DNA from: a virus
Virus record (IMG/VR): IMGVR_UViG_3300028454_000103
Reading direction: 5' to 3' (one strand)
DNA: 31,481 nucleotides
Shown: positions 1 through 31,481 of the stretch, in pieces
How positions within the stretch are numbered: the first letter of the stretch is position 1
How the letters are laid out: each line of letters begins with the position of its first letter
Notes under the pieces: model-generated
What the model saw: only the letters and a program-made list of their open reading frames with translations
Told to the model about the DNA's origin: nothing
Databases searched by the model: none
Made by a program: the position numbers and the translations under genes

Positions 1-104
1 ATGGCTTGCCCGTTGGGCGCGCTTTGTCTGTGGGCTCTGCGCTTTCGGACTCGCTTTGGCGTTTCGGGCTTGCCTTGACTTGCGAGCAACCTTTAGCGGC
101 GTAA
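1..104 (+). CDS. Duplicate 3' end of the DGR target / tail-fibre gene (same sequence as 31341-31444), including part of the VR (1-81)
   Basis: Created by the terminal overlap. Stop codon TAA is at 102-104. This is not an independent gene. Confidence 0.8.
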   Translation, partial: GLPVGRALSVGSALSDSLWRFGLALTCEQPLAA

Positions 105-213: not shown

Positions 214-324
214 ACTTTGCCCGCTTTGGCAGCAATGGTAACAATGGCTTGCCCGTTGGGCGCGCTTTGAATGTGAACAATGCGCTTTCGAACTCGAATT
301 GGAATTACGGGCTTGCCTAGACTT
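214..324 (+). repeat. DGR template repeat (TR)
   Basis: 111 bp aligns without gaps to 31311-31421. All 19 mismatches are adenines in this copy and 0 of 88 non-A positions differ. This copy is non-coding (in-frame TAG at 318-320) and rich in AAY triplets. Confidence 0.93.
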
Positions 325-480
325 TTCTAATTATGGAATATTAACAAAATGTGCCCTTTTATCCTACACCGCAGGGCGTTGCAACACGCCTAGCTATTTA
401 GCAAGTGGAAATACACCCGCAAAAGGTAAGGGCTAGTAGTACAGAAATAACGAAAACCCTTTAGGAGAATAAGTCACACC

Positions 481-1626
481 TTGAAAACCTATAAACACCT
501 TTTAGAGCAGATCGCAGACAAAGACAACGTAAGAAAAGCAATACTTAACGCAAGCAAGAGAAAAAGACATAGAAAAGACGTTAAACAAGTGATAGAGAAT
601 ATAGACTACCACGTAGAAGTAGTACACAACATGCTACTTACTGGCAGCTATAAGGCACACGTAGACGCGCCGTGTATTGTTAATGAGGGTACACACCACA
701 AAGTACGGCGCATACGTAAGCCACATTACAAGTACGACCAGATTATACACCACTGTATTATACAAGTACTGCAGCCGATATTAACCGCACCTATGTACGA
801 GTACAGCTGCGGCAGTATTCCAAAGAGGGGCGCACACTACGGCAAGCGGCGGCTAGAAAAGTGGATAAGGAACGACGTAAAAGGCACTAAGTATGTTTTT
901 AAAATGGATATTAAGCACTTTTACGAGAGTGTAGACCAAGACGTACTTAAGAGCATGCTAAAGGCTAAAATAAAAGACTGGCGGGCACTAGAGCTTATAT
1001 ACACAGTTATAGACAGCTGCGAAAAGGGCTTACCGTTAGGCAATTATACTAGCCAGTGGTTTGCAAACTTTATGCTAACGCCACTAGACCACTACATAAA
1101 AGAAGAGCTGCACGCTAAGTACTATATGCGATACATGGACGACATAGTAATACTGGGCGGCAATAAGAAAGAACTACACAAGATACACAAGGCTATAGAG
1201 AAGTACTTAAGCGAGCGCTTACACTTACGCATTAAGGAAAACTGGCAAGTATTTAGGCTTGTATATACCGACAGGAACGGACGGCAGCGCGGCAGATCAC
1301 TAGACTTTATGGGCTGGCAATTTTACCGCGAGAAAACCATACTACGCGAAAGCATTTACTTACGTATTGTACGCAAGGCAAGGCACGTAGGTAAGCACAC
1401 GACCATACAGGGCGCGCAAGGTATGATTAGCTACATGGGCTATATTAAGCATACGGACTGTTACGGCACTTACAGAGACTATATACGCCCGTATGTAAAT
1501 ATAGGAAAACTAAAGAAATTCACATCAAAAAGAGCCAAGAAAGGAGCGCTAAAAAATGGAGCGGAGAAAAACGACAGGAACGCAGACGACACAGCCAGCA
1601 GTACTAGACCTAGACAGCAGCCCTAG
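481..1626 (+). CDS. DGR-type reverse transcriptase
   Basis: 381 aa with a TTG start 13 nt after AGGAG. RT motifs IPKRG, FKMDIKHFY and YMDD (nt 1132-1143). LGNYTSQ (nt 1033-1053) matches the DGR-clade [I/L]GxxxSQ signature. Adjacent TR. Confidence 0.93.
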   Translation: MKTYKHLLEQIADKDNVRKAILNASKRKRHRKDVKQVIENIDYHVEVVHNMLLTGSYKAHVDAPCIVNEGTHHKVRRIRKPHYKYDQIIHHCIIQVLQPILTAPMYEYSCGSIPKRGAHYGKRRLEKWIRNDVKGTKYVFKMDIKHFYESVDQDVLKSMLKAKIKDWRALELIYTVIDSCEKGLPLGNYTSQWFANFMLTPLDHYIKEELHAKYYMRYMDDIVILGGNKKELHKIHKAIEKYLSERLHLRIKENWQVFRLVYTDRNGRQRGRSLDFMGWQFYREKTILRESIYLRIVRKARHVGKHTTIQGAQGMISYMGYIKHTDCYGTYRDYIRPYVNIGKLKKFTSKRAKKGALKNGAEKNDRNADDTASSTRPRQQP

Positions 1627-1903
1627 TACGGTTTACATACGAAAGAACATTACCAAAGCGACAGTAAGAGACGCAGAGGGCGTTAAAGTGCCCGTATGGA
1701 AGTACGACGAGGCAGCAATTAGCCGCGCAGAGTATGAGAAAAACGAGGCAATTTACAGCGAGCTTGTAGTAATGATTGAGCAGCAGGCAGCTAACGACAG
1801 CATTTACAGCGAAGTACTTTTACAGCAGGCAGACGCACAGGCAACGCTAGAAGAGCAAGACCAGACGCTAGCAGACATTCTACTTACAGTACAGGGGGTT
1901 TAA
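1556..1903 (+). CDS. Hypothetical protein, possibly XkdW-like (tail-fibre-associated); overlaps the RT 3' end by 71 nt
   Basis: AGGAG lies 10 nt upstream of the ATG. Acidic helical C-terminus ending LADILLTVQGV. Sits directly before an XkdX-like ORF, as in PBSX-type tail modules. Confidence 0.5.
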   Translation: MERRKTTGTQTTQPAVLDLDSSPSTVYIRKNITKATVRDAEGVKVPVWKYDEAAISRAEYEKNEAIYSELVVMIEQQAANDSIYSEVLLQQADAQATLEEQDQTLADILLTVQGV

Positions 1904-4594: not shown

Positions 4595-5650
4595 TTATGT
4601 TATTTTCTCTATTTCCTGCTTAAGCTCGTCTATTGTTCTATGCGTATACACCTTTTCTGTTACGTCGTCTATGGCGTGCCCTACAATGAGCTTAAGTATA
4701 TACTCGTCTACGCCGCTTTCTTTCGCTTTAGTTATGAACGTGTGGCGGGTATCGTGGGGCGTGTGCTGCATTTTAAAGCGTTTCATAATCTTTTTAAAGC
4801 GCCCGCGCCACTTATCGTACGTAAGCTCTTTACCAGTCTGGCTGCTTTCATCATAAAAGAGGGTATCGCAGCCAGCGGCAGCAGCTTTGTTATAGCAGCT
4901 TTCGACCAGATCATAAACGCGGCTATGTATCGGTACTACCCTATTGCGCCCTGCGTCAGTCTTAAGCCCGCCTATTATGGTACGCTCTTTTAAGTCTACG
5001 TCGCTTAGTTTAAGTATAGCTAGCTCTTGTGGACGAAAGCCGCTATATATTCCTATAAGCAGCATGTCTACAAACGGGTAAGCCAGATTACTAAACAGCG
5101 TTTCTATTTCATTATCAGAGAACGGCACACGCTTAATAACCTTTTCGCCCTTTTTAACGCTATTACACAGCGCCGCGTAGTCTTTGTCGCATATTTCATG
5201 CTTAAGAGCGTACTTGTACATGAGATTATAAAGGCTTTTCATGCGCTGCTTAGTGGGCTGCCCTGCTGCCGCGTCTTTAATAGTTTGTTCTAAGTGGTTT
5301 ACGCGTATATCTCTAAAGCGCATATCGTGCAGCGGGGCGCTATGGTTATATGCGCTTATCCATGTGCGGCGGGCGCTGGGTACTATAAGCTCGAAATGCT
5401 CTTTAGCCCACTTTTCGTACACTTCCTTAAATGTAATCGTATTTACTTGTATGTCGTAGGGGTTAGCGTTGAAGTCTGCCAGCGCTTGCAGTGCAGCAGC
5501 CTTAGTAGGATAATAGCCGACTGTTACGAAATGCTGCTTAGCTTTTCCGCTATCATCAATAGACCAGCCCGTAGTTTTACGGGCTATATATGGGTTACGT
5601 CGTTTGCCAGATAGTTTATAAACAGAGCCGTAGCCGTTTGGTAGTTTCAT
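4595..5650 (-). CDS. int: Tyrosine site-specific integrase
   Basis: 351 aa. C-terminal catalytic pattern HDTRHTF...GH...EKVYTHR. N-terminal arm-binding-like MKLPNGYGSVYKLSGKRRNPYIARK. Confidence 0.95.
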   Translation of the reverse strand: MKLPNGYGSVYKLSGKRRNPYIARKTTGWSIDDSGKAKQHFVTVGYYPTKAAALQALADFNANPYDIQVNTITFKEVYEKWAKEHFELIVPSARRTWISAYNHSAPLHDMRFRDIRVNHLEQTIKDAAAGQPTKQRMKSLYNLMYKYALKHEICDKDYAALCNSVKKGEKVIKRVPFSDNEIETLFSNLAYPFVDMLLIGIYSGFRPQELAILKLSDVDLKERTIIGGLKTDAGRNRVVPIHSRVYDLVESCYNKAAAAGCDTLFYDESSQTGKELTYDKWRGRFKKIMKRFKMQHTPHDTRHTFITKAKESGVDEYILKLIVGHAIDDVTEKVYTHRTIDELKQEIEKIT

Positions 5651-10489: not shown

Positions 10490-11110
10490 ATGGAAACACA
10501 AAACCTTATTACGCTGCTAGGAATTGCAGAAACAGACGCAGAGCCGCAAGAGTTTATTAACGGCACTAAAGTTAAGTGCTGGCATATCCTGCTTAGGACA
10601 GATAGACACAGCGGCACGCCAGATTATGAGCACATCTATTTTACAGAGAAAGCCAACAGCAACGACCTACTACCATTTATTAAGGGCATGCCCGTTATGG
10701 TTATAGGCTGCATGCAGACAGCTAAGGACTTTAAAACAAATAGAGTGCTTACTTTTGTGTCTGCAGATTACGTGGGCGTGGTTAAGGGGGATAACTACGA
10801 GCTACAGAACGACGTAAAGATAGTAGGCAAGCTGGGCAAGGGCATAGAGTACCGCGTAAAGAAGAGCGGCAAGCGCATTACTAACTTAATGCTGGAAGTG
10901 CCCAGCGTATTTAGAGCAAGCACTAACTGTTATATACCTTGTATCTGCTGGCAGTCACTAGCAGACAAAGCTAAAGACTGGCAAGTAGGCGACACAGTAG
11001 AGCTTACAGGCAGACTGCAGAGCCGCGACTTTATCAAAAAACAAGAGGGCGCAGAGGATATTAAGCGCACCAGCTACGAGGTATCTATATGCAATATGAC
11101 CAGACTATAA
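10490..11110 (+). CDS. OB-fold, SSB-like protein (non-canonical)
   Basis: The C-terminal half (ITNLMLEV...YIPCICWQSLADKAKDWQVGDTVELTGRLQSRDF...RTSYEVSI) follows the SSB OB-fold pattern but lacks an acidic tail. Confidence 0.5.
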   Translation: METQNLITLLGIAETDAEPQEFINGTKVKCWHILLRTDRHSGTPDYEHIYFTEKANSNDLLPFIKGMPVMVIGCMQTAKDFKTNRVLTFVSADYVGVVKGDNYELQNDVKIVGKLGKGIEYRVKKSGKRITNLMLEVPSVFRASTNCYIPCICWQSLADKAKDWQVGDTVELTGRLQSRDFIKKQEGAEDIKRTSYEVSICNMTRL

Positions 11111-12168
11111 CAGCACACGTAATTATATACGCAGAACTACTAGCGCCAGTAGGCGGCATAGAGACTTTTATATATAACCTATGCTGCGCACTCCATAAAG
11201 AGTACGACATAAAGGTTATATATAAGAACGGCGACGACAAGCAAATAGAGAGGCTGCAGGGCTTAGTAATGACATTGCAGTTAAGCAGCGTGCTAGAGGC
11301 TAGCTGCGACTTGCTTATTATGAATAGCATTTTTGATAAGCAGCCCGTACAGATCACAGCGGGGCGCGTACTGCAAATGGTACATAGCTGCAAGCTACGC
11401 GACTTTTACAAAATACCAGAGGGGCGCGACCAGTACATAGCAGTTAGTGAGGCGGCAAGGGTTACTTATCCTAAAGAGCTGCCAGACGACACGGGGGTAC
11501 TGCACAATATCGGAAACAGCAAAGAGCCTAAGCGCCTACTTAAGCTCTTAAGCGCTACCCGTCTTACAGAGGAAAAGGGCGGCGACAGGATAAAGCAACT
11601 AGCAGCGCAGCTTAACGCAGCGGACATACCTTTTATATGGCTTATATTTACGGCTAACGAGTTTAGACCAGTACCAAAAGGCGTAATACTTATGCAGCCA
11701 GACTTAGAGATTAAGCCATATATTGCAGCAGCAGACTACCTAGTACAACTAAGCGACAACGAGAGCTACTGCTACAGCATTGTAGAGGCATTTAGCTTAG
11801 GCACGCCAGTAATTACTACACCTATTAGCGTAGCAGACGAAATAGGCGTAGAGGACGGCGTTAACGGTTATGTCGTGCCGTTTGATATGCAGGGCATAGA
11901 CGTTAAAAAGATATACGAGCATATACCTACTGGCTTTACTTACAAGAGCGAGGACAAGGAAATATTAAAGCGCTGGCGGCAGATCATAGGCAAGCCAACT
12001 AGAAAGCCTACATATAAGCCAGCAGAAAAAATGCACGTAGAGGCGACGCAGGACTACTTAGACAATGCGCTAGGCAAGCTGGTAGTAAAAGGCGAGCGCC
12101 ACTACATGAGCATACAGAGAGCAAACAAGCTGCAGAGCATGGGCTTAGTAAAGCTGCTTGAAAATTAA
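11089..12168 (+). CDS. Glycosyltransferase family 1 (GT-B fold)
   Basis: LSATRLTEEKG...DYLVQLSDNESYCYSIVEAFSLGTPVITTP...GVNGYVV is a typical GT1 C-terminal domain with an EX7E-type motif. Confidence 0.85.
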   Translation: MQYDQTITAHVIIYAELLAPVGGIETFIYNLCCALHKEYDIKVIYKNGDDKQIERLQGLVMTLQLSSVLEASCDLLIMNSIFDKQPVQITAGRVLQMVHSCKLRDFYKIPEGRDQYIAVSEAARVTYPKELPDDTGVLHNIGNSKEPKRLLKLLSATRLTEEKGGDRIKQLAAQLNAADIPFIWLIFTANEFRPVPKGVILMQPDLEIKPYIAAADYLVQLSDNESYCYSIVEAFSLGTPVITTPISVADEIGVEDGVNGYVVPFDMQGIDVKKIYEHIPTGFTYKSEDKEILKRWRQIIGKPTRKPTYKPAEKMHVEATQDYLDNALGKLVVKGERHYMSIQRANKLQSMGLVKLLEN

Positions 12169-12259: not shown

Positions 12260-13018
12260 ATGCCTTATGTTAAGAGAACAACCCAAGCAGGAAAGACTAT
12301 AGAGGTAGAGTACTACTACACCAGCCAGTACAACCGTAAAGGGCAATGCAGAGCCGATAAAGTTAAGCCTACTAAAGAGGCACAGAAAAAAATTAACAAT
12401 AAGCAGGCAGAGAGAAAGCTAAGGCTACTGCTTAACGCTAACTTTGGCTATGGAGACTACCACGTAATACTTGACTACATCAGACAAGAGGGTAAGCCAG
12501 ATCGTACCAAAGAGGAAATGCAGACAGATATAGCTAAGTTTCTACGAGAGCTTAGAAAGCTATACAGGAAAGCAGGCAAAGAGCTTAAGTACGTGCATGT
12601 AATGGAGATAGGCAAAAAGGGAGCACGCCACCACCACTTAGTAATCAATAAGCTAGATACAGAGCTATTGCAGCAGGCGTGGTACAAAGCATACGAGGGG
12701 CACAACCGCGTTAAGGTATTCCCACTAGACGACACGGGCAACTATGCAGACCTAGCGGCATATCTGATTAAGTACACCAGCGAGCACCGCAGAGACGAGG
12801 GCGCACTTATGGGCAAGCGCTATAACTGCAGCCGCAACCTAGTACACCCAGAGCCTAAGTACGAGATATGCACAAGCAAGGCATACTTTAGAGTGCGCGA
12901 GAACATCAAAGCACCAAAGGGCTACTACATACCAGCAGACAGCATAGAGCAGGGCGTAACAAGCCCAGAGTATTACGGCTATGGCTGGTTTAGGTACACA
13001 ATGGTACGGCTAGAGTAA
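12260..13018 (+). CDS. HUH-superfamily rolling-circle replication initiator-like protein (two-tyrosine type)
   Basis: HHHLVIN (HUH motif). AAYLIKYTSEH has two Tyr separated by three residues, as in the phiX174 A / P2 A class. Confidence 0.6.
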   Translation: MPYVKRTTQAGKTIEVEYYYTSQYNRKGQCRADKVKPTKEAQKKINNKQAERKLRLLLNANFGYGDYHVILDYIRQEGKPDRTKEEMQTDIAKFLRELRKLYRKAGKELKYVHVMEIGKKGARHHHLVINKLDTELLQQAWYKAYEGHNRVKVFPLDDTGNYADLAAYLIKYTSEHRRDEGALMGKRYNCSRNLVHPEPKYEICTSKAYFRVRENIKAPKGYYIPADSIEQGVTSPEYYGYGWFRYTMVRLE

Positions 13019-13033: not shown

Positions 13034-13687
13034 ATGACAAAGGCAAAGAGAGTAATAGCAATAACGGCAGCGGCACTACTTGTACTGGCATTACTGGGCA
13101 GCTGCTTTGTATCAGATCACGAGGGCGACGAGGCAGCAGAGGCTAAGAGCGAGCCTATAGACACGGTAGAGCTGGTTATAGTGCAGCAGGCAGTGCAGCT
13201 GGCAGAGGCAGCAGAAACAGACGAGCTGCAGGCAGAGTACGAGTATATACCCAGCACGCAGGCAGACGAGGGCTACATAAGCGAGCTAGAGCTTATAGAG
13301 ATTACCGAGGAATACGGCAGACAGTACAATATATGCCCAGAGCTGCTGCAGGCAATAGCAATGCGAGAGAGCACGCTATACTTACAGGCTACTAACGGCG
13401 ACTGCAAAGGGCTTATGCAGATTAGCGAGAAGTGGCACACAGAGCGCATGCAGCGCTTAGGCGTTACAGACATATACGACGCAAGAGGCAACATACTACT
13501 AGCTGCAGACTACATAGCAGAGCTAAGAGACACCACAGAGTACGGCTACGACTTAGTATACGTGCTTATGCGTTACAACATGGCGACAGACACAGCAAAC
13601 CAGCTGTATAAACAGGGCGAGTATACAGACTATGCGCTAGAGATCATAGAGGAAAGCAAACGCCTAGAGAGGTTACACGGGAAATAA
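13034..13687 (+). CDS. Membrane-anchored lytic transglycosylase (SLT domain)
   Basis: N-terminal TM/signal anchor AITAAALLVLALLGSC. SLT motifs AMRESTL, GLMQI and AADYI. Confidence 0.85.
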   Translation: MTKAKRVIAITAAALLVLALLGSCFVSDHEGDEAAEAKSEPIDTVELVIVQQAVQLAEAAETDELQAEYEYIPSTQADEGYISELELIEITEEYGRQYNICPELLQAIAMRESTLYLQATNGDCKGLMQISEKWHTERMQRLGVTDIYDARGNILLAADYIAELRDTTEYGYDLVYVLMRYNMATDTANQLYKQGEYTDYALEIIEESKRLERLHGK

Positions 13688-28889: not shown

Positions 28890-29876
28890 ATGGCACAAAA
28901 ATGCTTTCCGTTTAACAGCGACAGCGGCGACAGAGTTTATAAAGCAGAGGACTTTAGGGCATACTTTGCGCAGTTTATCGGTAACGGCGTATTTTATGCG
29001 AACTCTAACGCCCTTAAGGTAGTAGAAAGTAGCGGCATGAGCGTTAACGTAAATGCAGGCGCAGGCTGGATAGCTGGCGCAGGATATATTAACGACAGTG
29101 TGCTACAGCTTACGCTTGCAAATGCAGACGGCGCACTTAACCGTATAGACAGAGTAGTACTACGCTGCAGCTACACAGAGCGCGACGTATACGTAGTAGT
29201 AAAGCAGGGTAGCTTATCAGCACAGCCAACAGCACCAGCGCTTACACGTAACGCAGATAATTACGAGCTGGCACTTGCAGACATTTACGTAGCAGCAGGC
29301 GCTACAAGCATTACGCAGCAGGATATTACAGACCAGAGGCTTAATACAACGCTTTGCGGTATCGTTACGGGGCTTATTGAGCAGGCAGACACGACAGACA
29401 TTTTTAACCAGTTTGAGAGCTACTTAACACAGTTTAAGGCGCAGTACATTGCAGACATTGAAGAGTGGACGAGCGCGCAGGAAAGTGCTTTTACATCATG
29501 GAGCACACAGCAGCAGCAGGACTTTACAGACTGGGTAGACACAATTAGAGACATTTTGGACGAGGCGACAGCAGGACACTTACAGCTAGAAATAGAGGCA
29601 GCCGTTAAAGATACTTTCGAGCGTTTCTACGGCATGGCAGAGCAGCAGACAGACATTAAAACTAACGGGCAGATCGTAGTAACAAACGACGACGGCACGC
29701 TAACAGTTACTAAGGGCGTGGACGCAGAAACGGGCTACAAGACAATTACAGAGGTACTGGAAACAGCAGCCACAAGTAGCCAAGGCGCACACACTTACAC
29801 TAAGGTAACTACATTTATACCAGAGCCGACAGCCACAGTTAAAAAGCGCATTAGAGAGGAGTACAGCATAGCATGA
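28890..29876 (+). CDS. Tail fibre / baseplate structural protein
   Basis: 328 aa. ATGA-coupled to the DGR target gene. No enzymatic motif. Confidence 0.6.
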   Translation: MAQKCFPFNSDSGDRVYKAEDFRAYFAQFIGNGVFYANSNALKVVESSGMSVNVNAGAGWIAGAGYINDSVLQLTLANADGALNRIDRVVLRCSYTERDVYVVVKQGSLSAQPTAPALTRNADNYELALADIYVAAGATSITQQDITDQRLNTTLCGIVTGLIEQADTTDIFNQFESYLTQFKAQYIADIEEWTSAQESAFTSWSTQQQQDFTDWVDTIRDILDEATAGHLQLEIEAAVKDTFERFYGMAEQQTDIKTNGQIVVTNDDGTLTVTKGVDAETGYKTITEVLETAATSSQGAHTYTKVTTFIPEPTATVKKRIREEYSIA

Positions 29877-31444
29877 GTTACGCAGAGCAAAATTATACTA
29901 TCGACGAGTTAACAGAGGTTATTAACGCCGCTGCCACTGGCATACCACCCGCCAACATGCAGCAGTTTAGCGTATCTGCAGGCGACACTAAAGTAAGTAT
30001 CGTAGCTTTAGAGCCAGCAGACACAGAGGTAGACGGGCAGCTAGTAGCAAGCTGCAAGGGCTTTAAAATCGTTATGAACGACGACCACTACCCAGTAGAC
30101 GAGACAGACGGCACAGTAGTAGTAGACCACGTAGCAACTGGCAGCGCATTGCAGCAGGAAGTTACAGGACTTACAAACGACCAGCAGTACTACTTTGCAG
30201 CTTTCCCTTATACAGATCATGGCGTAGTTAACAGGGCAGCAGGCTTAAGAGTACTTGCGGGCAGCCACCCTAACAGACAGACAGCAACGCCTAAAGCATA
30301 CGTACTTTACGGCTTTAAGAGAACTAAGGCAGACAGCAACCCGCAGACAAGAGTAGTAGCTACAGACATGGCAGTAGGGCTTACACCCGCAAGCATGGAC
30401 GCAAGCACAGGCGAAATTAACTTAGGCGGCTGGGCTAATGCGTGGTTTGTAACAGGCAACAAGCCAGTAATGCTTAAGAGCGACGGCACTATAGACTACG
30501 AGCTTAACCCTAACGACTACACAAAGAAAGCAGACGGCACAGCCAGCGACGTAGCTAACACAAGTTACGACGGTAACGCTATGGCGCTCTTTCCTACATG
30601 CTGGGTTAAGCGCTGGCAAGACAGCACTTACGAGTATTTCCAAGTTTGCAACATCAAACTTAACGACGACTTTAAGGCGTACGCACACCAGCGCAGCGAC
30701 GGTACTATTATGGAGTGGTTTGCGCGCTCTATCTATGACGCTGGCGTAGTAAACAGCAAGGCACGTAGTATTAGCGGGCTTACACCTAACAACACGGTAG
30801 CGGGCGGCACACAGCTTAGCTATGCACAGGCTAACGGCAGCTTATGGGATAGCGACACATGGAGCAGGGTAGCTCTTATCTGGGATTTATTAACCCTTAT
30901 GTCGTTAGACGACGACGTACAGCACGCGTGGGGCTATGGCTGGTATACTGGCATGTCGCAGGCTAGCCACCTTAAGGCAGCAGGCTTAGGCAATACTAAG
31001 GGGCAATTCTGGGGCAAGAGAGAAAACAACACCGTTAAGGTATTCCACTTAGAGAATTTTTGGGGCAATATCTGGAAAATTGTACAGGGGCTTGTATATA
31101 ACACCACTGGCAAGTACGGCGTAAAAATGACTGCACCATACAACAACAGCGGCAGCGGCTACGTAGCTACGAGCTTTGGTTTATCTGGTACAAGTGGCGG
31201 CTATCAGTCAGCCCACAATATGAGCGAGCACGGCTGCTTACCTACAACAGCAAGCGGCAGCGAAACCACTTATATACCAGACGGCGCGTGGTGGAATACT
31301 ACGCAGCAGAACTTTGCCCGCTTTGGCTGCGCTGGTGGCTATGGCTTGCCCGTTGGGCGCGCTTTGTCTGTGGGCTCTGCGCTTTCGGACTCGCTTTGGC
31401 GTTTCGGGCTTGCCTTGACTTGCGAGCAACCTTTAGCGGCGTAA
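29873..31444 (+). CDS. DGR target protein: tail fibre / receptor-binding protein with a C-terminal C-type-lectin-like variable region
   Basis: 523 aa. The last 45 codons contain the VR. The TR-encoded version reads ..FGSNGNNGLPVGRALNVNNALSNSNWNYGLA.., a typical DGR CLec ligand-binding segment. Confidence 0.9.
   Translation: MSYAEQNYTIDELTEVINAAATGIPPANMQQFSVSAGDTKVSIVALEPADTEVDGQLVASCKGFKIVMNDDHYPVDETDGTVVVDHVATGSALQQEVTGLTNDQQYYFAAFPYTDHGVVNRAAGLRVLAGSHPNRQTATPKAYVLYGFKRTKADSNPQTRVVATDMAVGLTPASMDASTGEINLGGWANAWFVTGNKPVMLKSDGTIDYELNPNDYTKKADGTASDVANTSYDGNAMALFPTCWVKRWQDSTYEYFQVCNIKLNDDFKAYAHQRSDGTIMEWFARSIYDAGVVNSKARSISGLTPNNTVAGGTQLSYAQANGSLWDSDTWSRVALIWDLLTLMSLDDDVQHAWGYGWYTGMSQASHLKAAGLGNTKGQFWGKRENNTVKVFHLENFWGNIWKIVQGLVYNTTGKYGVKMTAPYNNSGSGYVATSFGLSGTSGGYQSAHNMSEHGCLPTTASGSETTYIPDGAWWNTTQQNFARFGCAGGYGLPVGRALSVGSALSDSLWRFGLALTCEQPLAA
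31311..31421 (+). repeat. DGR variable region (VR)
   Basis: Gap-free 111-bp match to TR 214-324 with 19 substitutions, all opposite TR adenines. Ends 23 nt before the stop codon. Confidence 0.93.
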
Positions 31445-31481
31445 GCCGCAGGGGGAACGGGGGAGCACTCCCCCCGCATAC
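31341..31481. repeat. Second copy of the 141-bp terminal overlap
   Basis: Identical to 1-141. Confidence 0.95.

Follow-up and report, generated by a model that had tools for sequence, protein, structure and literature searches.

Diversity-generating retroelements (DGRs) are abundant and well catalogued. Published mechanistic work on them rests, to our knowledge, on the Avd-dependent element of Bordetella phage BPP-1. In this prototype (mtd-avd-TR-brt) sequence passes with adenine specificity from a template repeat (TR) to a variable repeat (VR) in the 3′ end of a phage tail/receptor-binding gene, and synthesis of complementary DNA (cDNA) is primed by a spacer adenosine at the TR nucleotide immediately 5′ of a template-primer duplex (10.1101/2023.10.23.563531). 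The BPP-1 ribonucleoprotein study surveyed Avd-containing DGRs only (10.1101/2023.10.23.563531). An accessory protein is known not to be defining for all DGRs and to be dispensable in a large minority: the accessory-less architecture A1 (TR-RT, where RT denotes reverse transcriptase) accounts for 29% of the DGRs catalogued, and avd is wholly absent from one lineage of RTs ("Lineage 3 lacks avd"; Wu et al. 2018, PMC5758913). Here we describe a cassette in the 31,481-nt virus record IMGVR_UViG_3300028454_000103 (the whole stretch, hereafter the window) that is almost certainly a DGR of this accessory-less TR-RT type, harbored by a temperate siphovirus that belongs to the genus Arawnvirus and has Butyrivibrio as its host.

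The window is ~96% identical to the Butyrivibrio phages Arawn (MN882550) and Idris (MN882554) of that genus, both of which were isolated on B. fibrisolvens DSM 3071 and of which Arawn is a UK rumen isolate. The ~96% identity extends across the cassette and its architecture is the same in all three, while each phage has its own VR. In the public records of Arawn and Idris the genes concerned are listed only as "putative reverse transcriptase" and "hypothetical protein". The paper describing the two phages read the RT as a possible prophage immunity gene and did not mention DGRs (PMC7372960), and among the papers searched we found none linking either phage to a DGR.

Repeat pair, reverse transcriptase and target gene

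In an exact ungapped comparison (offset 31097) the TR, at positions 214–324 of the plus strand, and the VR, at 31311–31421 of the same strand, differ at 19 of 111 positions. The TR base is adenine at all 19 mismatches, none of the 88 non-A positions differs, and four of the 23 TR adenines (214, 244, 292 and 321) are the same in the VR. The probability that 19 mismatches would all fall by chance on 23 adenines among 111 positions is 7.6e-18. Similarity between the repeats breaks off sharply at both ends, and an adenine-tolerant scan of both strands of the window found no second VR. The TR is non-coding: read in the VR frame it contains a TAG at 318–320, and no open reading frame (ORF) of at least 60 amino acids crosses it. 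In that same frame its adenines fall at codon positions 1, 2 and 3 in the numbers 11, 12 and 0, nine codons are AAY, and the translation runs S-N-G-N-N-G...N-V-N-N...N-S-N-W-N-Y, a make-up that follows the design typical of DGR templates.

The VR covers codons 480–517 of a 523-codon target gene, and thus lies at the 3′ end of its gene with the template adenines at codon positions 1 and 2. Because the window carries an exact 141-nt terminal direct repeat (1–141 equals 31341–31481), we read it as a circular assembly of 31,340 bp. The terminal repeat cuts through the VR, so bases 1–81 are a second copy of its 3′ part (31341–31421), and in the circular molecule the end of the VR lies only 132 nt upstream of the TR. 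The order of the cassette is then target gene, VR, 132 nt, TR, 156 nt, RT.

The RT gene (481–1626, plus strand) begins with TTG, is preceded by the Shine-Dalgarno sequence AGGAG at 463–467 and encodes 381 amino acids that match RVT_1 (E 8.5e-14) and phrog_1423 (E 9e-108). Many relatives have ATG in place of the TTG start. Beside the TR we find an RT with the [I/L]GxxxSQ and YxDD signatures of the DGR type, its motifs being SIPKRG, FKMDIKHFY, YMDD and LGNYTSQ. The best PDB match is bRT (8ub7), the RT of the BPP-1 DGR, over residues 2–330 (E 9e-29). As a single sequence the protein scores 104 bits against bRT and 68 bits against the best group II RT; with a family profile of 37 members the corresponding values are 134 and 88 bits. 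Invariant R76 aligns with bRT R74, and L186 of LGNYTSQ aligns with bRT I181, two residues that touch the incoming nucleotide and the template base (10.1101/2023.10.23.563531). A group II intron was considered and rejected: TIGR04416 reaches 97.5 bits where its cut-off is 300, and no intron RNA family was matched in positions 1–700.

A preliminary description of this DNA had claimed the 111-position alignment with its 19 listed mismatches, all at TR adenines, the four unchanged adenines and the lack of any non-A difference, a non-coding A-bearing copy, and a distance of 156 nt to a DGR-type RT carrying IPKRG, FKMDIKHFY, YMDD and LGNYTSQ. Recomputation reproduced the alignment exactly, including the absence of non-adenine mismatches; no ORF of the size given above covers 214–324; and the motifs and the spacing are all as described. 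The assignment of the RT is likewise upheld, since its nearest solved relative over the full length is the BPP-1 enzyme, ahead of the group II RTs.

The target gene (29873–31444, plus strand) is the last of the tail module, downstream of Dit and Tal, and its 523-residue product matches phrog_5302, "tail protein" (E 9e-67). No Pfam domain was found in it. The protein has an FN3-like domain at its N-terminus and, after it, a large C-terminal domain in which the VR lies. The AlphaFold2 model (pLDDT 91.4) has as its best PDB fold match 5vf4 (Foldseek E 6e-9, probability 1.0), followed by FN3 domains. This structure is TaqVP, the DGR variable protein of Thermus aquaticus, which we take to have a C-type-lectin fold, and the variable domain of the target is accordingly modelled as C-type-lectin-type, as in BPP-1. 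TaqVP is the best structural match, yet it shares only 14% sequence identity with the target at a TM-score of 0.35–0.46, and it differs in that the target has the extra N-terminal FN3-like domain and belongs to a phage tail module. The target is a hypervariable tail protein, probably of the receptor-binding kind.

The cassette belongs to a family. An exact 25-mer search of viral contigs for the invariant TR/VR core returned nothing, because the relatives carry A or T at position 253, where the window has C. Related loci were instead retrieved from viral contigs and bacterial genomes by means of the RT protein (41–98% identity). The order VR, gap, TR, spacer, RT with adenine-specific mismatches was present in 57 of 60 viral and 62 of 67 bacterial-genome loci (119 of 127 in all), with a VR–TR gap of 86–342 nt, a TR of ~78–126 nt (typically ~110) and a spacer of 107–209 nt. 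Lachnospiraceae and further Bacillota of gut or rumen make up most of the hosts. Three more distant loci (L157, L159 and L160; RT ~34% identical, two of them from an archaeal metagenome-assembled genome) have the TR ~24 nt before the RT and the VR downstream of the RT.

Natural variation and recent activity

Several lines of evidence, all drawn from assembled genomes and contigs, bear on how the VR varies in nature. First, of the 15 positions that separate Arawn from Idris over 3.5 kb, 13 are VR sites matching TR adenines. The TRs of both phages equal that of the window except for A/C at 253, and comparison of each TR with its own VR places all nine mismatches of Arawn and all 17 of Idris at adenines. 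Second, among 24 full-length target proteins drawn from the two clusters (90% identity) to which Idris and Arawn belong, entropy exceeds 1.4 bits only at TR-adenine codons, namely 486, 487, 489, 490, 493, 499, 501, 502, 506, 508, 510 and 511; codon 493 holds adenine in the Arawn-type TR. Third, non-A substitutions in the TR are mirrored in the VR of the same genome, and the VR is changed where the TR base is A: at 253 the window has C in both repeats whereas in Arawn a TR adenine stands against a T of the VR, and the TR change T287C of one related locus (L006) reappears in the VR of that locus. Taken as a whole, these lines of evidence show that sequence has flowed from TR to VR, one-way and with mutagenesis of adenines, in the very recent past.

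Taken together with the adenine-only footprint, the bRT-like RT and the TaqVP-like target, the confinement of natural hypervariation to TR-adenine codons bears out the preliminary description in its central claim that the locus is a DGR; Arawn and Idris diverge almost only at TR-adenine positions of the VR, and hypervariable codons without a TR adenine, which would have spoken otherwise, were not seen in the 24 proteins. The same description had called the element "currently active". Activity in the very recent past is supported by Arawn, Idris and the population VRs; activity at the present day goes beyond what these data support.

One of the 19 mismatches does not belong to the mutagenesis footprint, as had been proposed for all of them. 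All related VRs have T (codon L515) at the position of TR A319, the base that creates the in-frame TAG, and A321 is never altered. Across 19 distinct VRs of a sister clade, CTT invariably takes the place of the CAA of the TR, the synonymous third position included. Selection for leucine therefore cannot explain the fixed difference, and the bases are simply not transferred. From this it follows that the 3′-terminal 17 nt of the TR (308–324) are a segment resembling IMH* (IMH, initiation of mutagenic homing), with its counterpart in the VR resembling IMH, and that the rewritten tract corresponds to TR 231–307. In the VR this tract (31328–31404, plus strand) matches 20 TR adenines in 11 codons and varies among the window, Arawn, Idris and metagenomic relatives, while the VR positions outside it are invariant among the same sequences. 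Counted from the codon table, the 20 adenines allow ~1e12 DNA variants and ~6e11 proteins. The IMH-like 3′ end of the VR (31405–31435, with a copy at 65–95, plus strand) consists of GC-rich CGGGCTTGCC, then TTGACTT, then sequence unrelated to the TR, and is invariant in all relatives. The locus thus has a GC-rich invariant VR end with a fixed TR/VR difference at A319, followed by hairpins (below) that the TR lacks. Every testable defining feature of a DGR is found here except an accessory protein.

Other observations on the relatives deserve mention. The partial genome of Butyrivibrio phage Closwp03 (PQ069210), obtained in South Africa from cloacal swabs of chickens, agrees with Arawn at every site that differs among the four genomes in the 3.5-kb region, VR included; such identity is unexpected for a diversifying locus and suggests the same clone or contamination. 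Some population VRs (among P0123, P0126, P0130, P0131 and P0134) differ from one another at two or three variable codons or share one half, and P0123 and the window share the 3′ two-thirds of their VRs and differ in the 5′ third. These part-shared VRs could reflect partial conversion, recombination or chimeric metagenome assembly. A 4.5-kb contig in the assembly of the isolate Butyrivibrio sp. CB08 (NZ_RAIR01000019.1), whose name gives a coverage of ~2754x, carries an RT with 90% identity to that of the window and may be a replicating relative of the window phage in that culture.

The alternative that survives best is a decayed or dormant DGR, in which the footprint is a relic and the cassette has ceased to function here. 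Activity of this genome's own cassette was indeed not seen directly but is inferred, the duplex proposed below to prime cDNA synthesis is shortest in this lineage (5 bp), helix P4 of the spacer RNA contains a C-A mismatch, and the RT starts with TTG. Against this stand the complete lack of non-adenine drift between TR and VR, an intact RT with its catalytic motifs retained, the existence of genomes ~96% identical or closer that each have a different VR, and the C at 253 common to the TR and VR of the window, a site at which close relatives combine a TR adenine with T in the VR. We regard dormancy as improbable.

Still less likely is that the RT is a defence or superinfection-immunity enzyme of the retron, Abi or DRT type and that the repeat pair beside it is incidental. 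This was the interpretation of the original Arawn/Idris paper (PMC7372960), and the RT does give sub-threshold matches to Drt3a, retron and AbiA models. Every NCBIfam score for a defence RT is far under its cut-off, however (Drt3a, for example, 85 against 200 bits), a PADLOC search with the RT returned generic RT-domain matches only, and the matches from both sources are mostly confined to the central part of the protein, whereas bRT, the highest-scoring match, covers the full length. If the enzyme serves defence, nothing explains why more than 100 related loci should have adenine-only repeats beside the RT that track population hypervariation, and we consider the defence interpretation effectively refuted. 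Finally, we give next to no credence to the idea that the VR differences arose by recombination or gene conversion among co-circulating tail-gene alleles instead of reverse transcription: the mosaic look of P0130 against P0131 and of P0123 against the window (for which chimeric assembly is also possible) would be in its favor, but recombination would neither limit differences to the adenines of a nearby non-coding repeat nor hold all 88 non-adenine positions identical, and the adenine specificity contradicts it.

RNA elements and the absence of an accessory protein

Two hairpins follow the VR and are absent downstream of the TR. Hairpin 1 (96–109, also 31436–31449, plus strand; GCGGC-GTAA-GCCGC) holds the TAA stop codon of the target gene (102–104) in its loop and is recovered by DNA folding; its stem of 5–6 bp keeps complementarity in six sequences across the family, including GCGTC/GACGC in Arawn. 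Hairpin 2 (119–134; GGGGGA-GCAC-TCCCCC), a GC-rich stem with a 4-nt loop, forms with the G-run at 111–115 a second plus-strand element at 111–134. The pattern G4-5 N3-4 G4-5 loop C4-5 after the VR is preserved across the family, and the stems of both hairpins covary. Hairpin 2 resembles a GC-rich hairpin of 7–10 bp with a 4-nt loop that has been described after VRs (PMC3240598). The hairpin after the VR and the GC-rich IMH-like end are features shared with BPP-1, where a comparable hairpin is required for homing, although the loops of the window do not fit the published GRNA consensus. The hairpin region is not significantly more stable than shuffled sequences (z = −1.2). Within it, the paired G-runs GGGGG-AAC-GGGGG (111–123) that precede the loop of hairpin 2 are kept in lineages whose RTs are only 42–50% identical, and the C-run at 130–135 is one base longer than in Arawn, Idris and Closwp03, the sole indel of the 3.5-kb comparison.

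The TR itself is bracketed by a predicted duplex on the plus strand. In its 5′ arm (170–186), AAGGGCAC at 179–186 pairs with 351–358 and 170–174 pairs with 362–366; the 3′ arm (351–366) comprises GTGCCCTT plus TCCTA. The duplex appears in both the minimum-free-energy and the centroid folds of the single sequence. In 16 lineages 98.4% of alignment cells pair and seven of eight pairs show compensatory changes. Unconstrained searches for the longest duplex have a high chance background, and we therefore used positional rules and an independent set of loci: among bacterial-genome loci of this set the pre-set rule for the bracketing duplex held in 35 of 52, against 11% of shuffles.

In the interval that separates TR from RT lies a putative structured spacer RNA with its core at 365–467 (plus strand). 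Its helices are P1 (367–369:405–407), P2 (374–379:386–391), P3 (393–395:400–402), P4 (417–418:464–465) and P5 (428–432:457–461), of which P4 overlaps the Shine-Dalgarno sequence of the RT. Across relatives 90.8% of cells pair in these helices (28–40% in slid controls), with compensatory changes at 18 of the 23 pairs. RNAalifold run on the raw MAFFT alignment of the spacer found one helix only; the others came from the Rfam structure together with explicit pair counting. The core resembles the Rfam motifs RT-4 (RF03025) and RT-18 (RF03021) in its site immediately 5′ of the RT start, in its helices and in the conserved UAGUA and GAAA. Seven relatives (L020, L022, L023, L076, L077, L080 and L083) exceed the RT-18 threshold at the homologous site, and a motif of the RT-4/RT-18 type stands directly after the TR in every locus examined here. 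The study that described RT-4 and RT-18 as orphan RNA motifs upstream of RT genes linked RT-10 alone with a DGR (Weinberg et al. 2017, PMC5737381).

At the end of the spacer, AAGTC at 471–475 (plus strand), between the Shine-Dalgarno sequence and the TTG start, can pair with the last five bases of the TR (GACTT, 320–324). These are candidates for the primer strand and the template strand, respectively, of a priming duplex. The pairing first came unprompted from RNAalifold. In 19 lineages 83.6% of cells pair, against 39–50% in slid controls, and in the independent bacterial-genome loci a duplex of at least 6 bp was present in 90%, against 24% of shuffles. The TR base just 5′ of the duplex is adenine in 31 of 46 independent loci.

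By analogy with BPP-1, these elements allow the following account. The TR would be transcribed along with its flanks and the RT gene; as no promoter was found upstream of the TR, we assume read-through from the late operon. The RT would copy the TR into cDNA faithfully except opposite adenines, where any base would be possible, and the cDNA would replace the VR at the 3′ end of the last tail gene. Re-randomization would be limited to the 11 codons with TR adenines in 231–307; these lie in the predicted C-type-lectin-type ligand-binding domain, and their rewriting would presumably retune receptor binding. Transfer would be one-way, with the VR marked as recipient by its IMH-like end and downstream hairpins, which the TR lacks. 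Synthesis of cDNA may be primed in cis from the spacer RNA through the 320–324:471–475 duplex, beginning at about A319, the fixed TR/VR difference, with the bracketing duplex (179–186:351–358) bounding copying upstream, and copying would proceed without Avd. In position and logic the duplex between TR end and spacer resembles the template-primer duplex of BPP-1, and the bracketing duplex its cPRT-stop duplex.

We found no Avd, HRDC or other accessory protein in Pfam searches of 46 window proteins (29 small ORFs among them) or in NCBIfam searches of six, and neither an MSL nor a CH1 accessory was found. With a VR–TR gap of at most 342 nt, there is little or no room in the family for a typical avd gene of ~128 codons. 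The cassette matches architecture A1, whose gene order (target-TR-RT), lack of an accessory gene and, as predicted, C-type-lectin (CLec)-type variable fold it shares (PMC5758913). Besides the missing avd gene and a distance of only 132 nt from VR to TR, the window differs from BPP-1 in that its RT of 381 residues has a basic C-terminal tail where bRT has 328 residues, homology past the proposed cDNA start extends for 5 nt against ~17, the proposed primer strand is at the very end of the spacer (Shine-Dalgarno to start codon) and not in mid-spacer, and the host is Gram-positive.

A possible reading of these differences is that the cassette is an Avd-independent DGR in which RNA alone would serve as the scaffold, through the bracketing duplex, the RT-4/RT-18-type core and the priming strand. 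We hold this tentatively, at somewhat less than an even chance. The Shine-Dalgarno sequence is partly paired in P4 and the primer strand lies between it and the start codon, and the RNA may be unable to fold for priming while the RT is translated from it, and vice versa; under the RNA-scaffold proposal one transcript could act as RT mRNA or as self-priming template, not as both at once.

In addition to the want of directly seen activity, a number of points weigh against the account given here. Since no accessory protein was found, the canonical BPP-1 mechanism cannot apply unchanged. As a whole the RNA does not exceed shuffled sequence in stability (z = −0.07), and without a significant folding energy the RNA case rests on covariation. 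The spacer (365–474) stays under the Rfam gathering thresholds, with 49.1 bits for RT-4 (73.5) and 34.6 for RT-18 (41.3); the priming duplex of the window is only 5 bp long, and the alignment anchors for its 19-lineage test were hand-chosen. No sigma-70-like promoter was found on the plus strand upstream of the TR. With regard to the target, nine VR codons separate Arawn from Idris (codon 490 and eight that hold TR adenines in the window), and the two phages share one host strain; either both variants bind DSM 3071 or the target protein is not the sole determinant of adsorption. With such different VRs on a single host strain, a role of the target in host recognition is no more than presumed.

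Neighboring genes and implications for Butyrivibrio phages

A conserved acidic ORF of 115 amino acids (1556–1903, plus strand) overlaps the 3′ end of the RT gene by 71 nt in another frame; it adjoins the cassette and would be at most a candidate member of it. A homolog follows the RT in most loci of the family and is missing from several working cassettes. Public records give the ORF as either 115 or 71–72 amino acids. Searches of Pfam, NCBIfam, PADLOC, PDB sequences and folds gave no match for it and only close relatives were found; its AlphaFold2 model (pLDDT 65) contains beta strands and one long helix. We considered it as a hidden Avd and rejected this, as it is acidic, is not predicted to be all-helical, has no fold match and is absent from several working cassettes. 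The preliminary description had placed XkdW/XkdX-like genes next to the cassette. The XkdX-like gene is confirmed (PF09693, E 3e-17), while the XkdW assignment finds no support in the 115-amino acid ORF, which has no Pfam, PDB or fold match.

Elsewhere in the window, a minus-strand gene at 4595–5650 encodes a tyrosine recombinase of 351 amino acids (Phage_integrase, E 3e-19) whose homolog is "hypothetical" in the Arawn and Idris records. The temperate growth of these phages was argued mainly from an excisionase-like gene and PHACTS (PMC7372960), and the recombinase gene is direct support for a temperate lifestyle. The early region (plus strand) encodes a group-1 glycosyltransferase (11089–12168), a Rep ORF2/G2P-like protein (12260–13018) and an SLT transglycosylase-domain protein (13034–13687).

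The element is a previously unannotated DGR, and a DGR as such will not surprise the specialist. What it changes is the annotation of a cultured genus of rumen phages: the RTs encoded by Arawn and Idris are DGR enzymes rather than products of immunity genes, and their "hypothetical" last tail gene encodes a hypervariable tail protein that is probably receptor-binding. Two isolates that differ essentially in the VR alone, together with a culturable host, offer a ready system in which to study a DGR that lacks Avd. The conserved helices would extend the priming and stop RNA architecture of BPP-1 to an accessory-less lineage, and they suggest a function for the orphan Rfam motifs RT-4 and RT-18. 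If the RNA-scaffold proposal is true, Arawn and Idris on DSM 3071 would provide a directly testable model of Avd-less mutagenic retrohoming, and RT-4 and RT-18 would gain a function.

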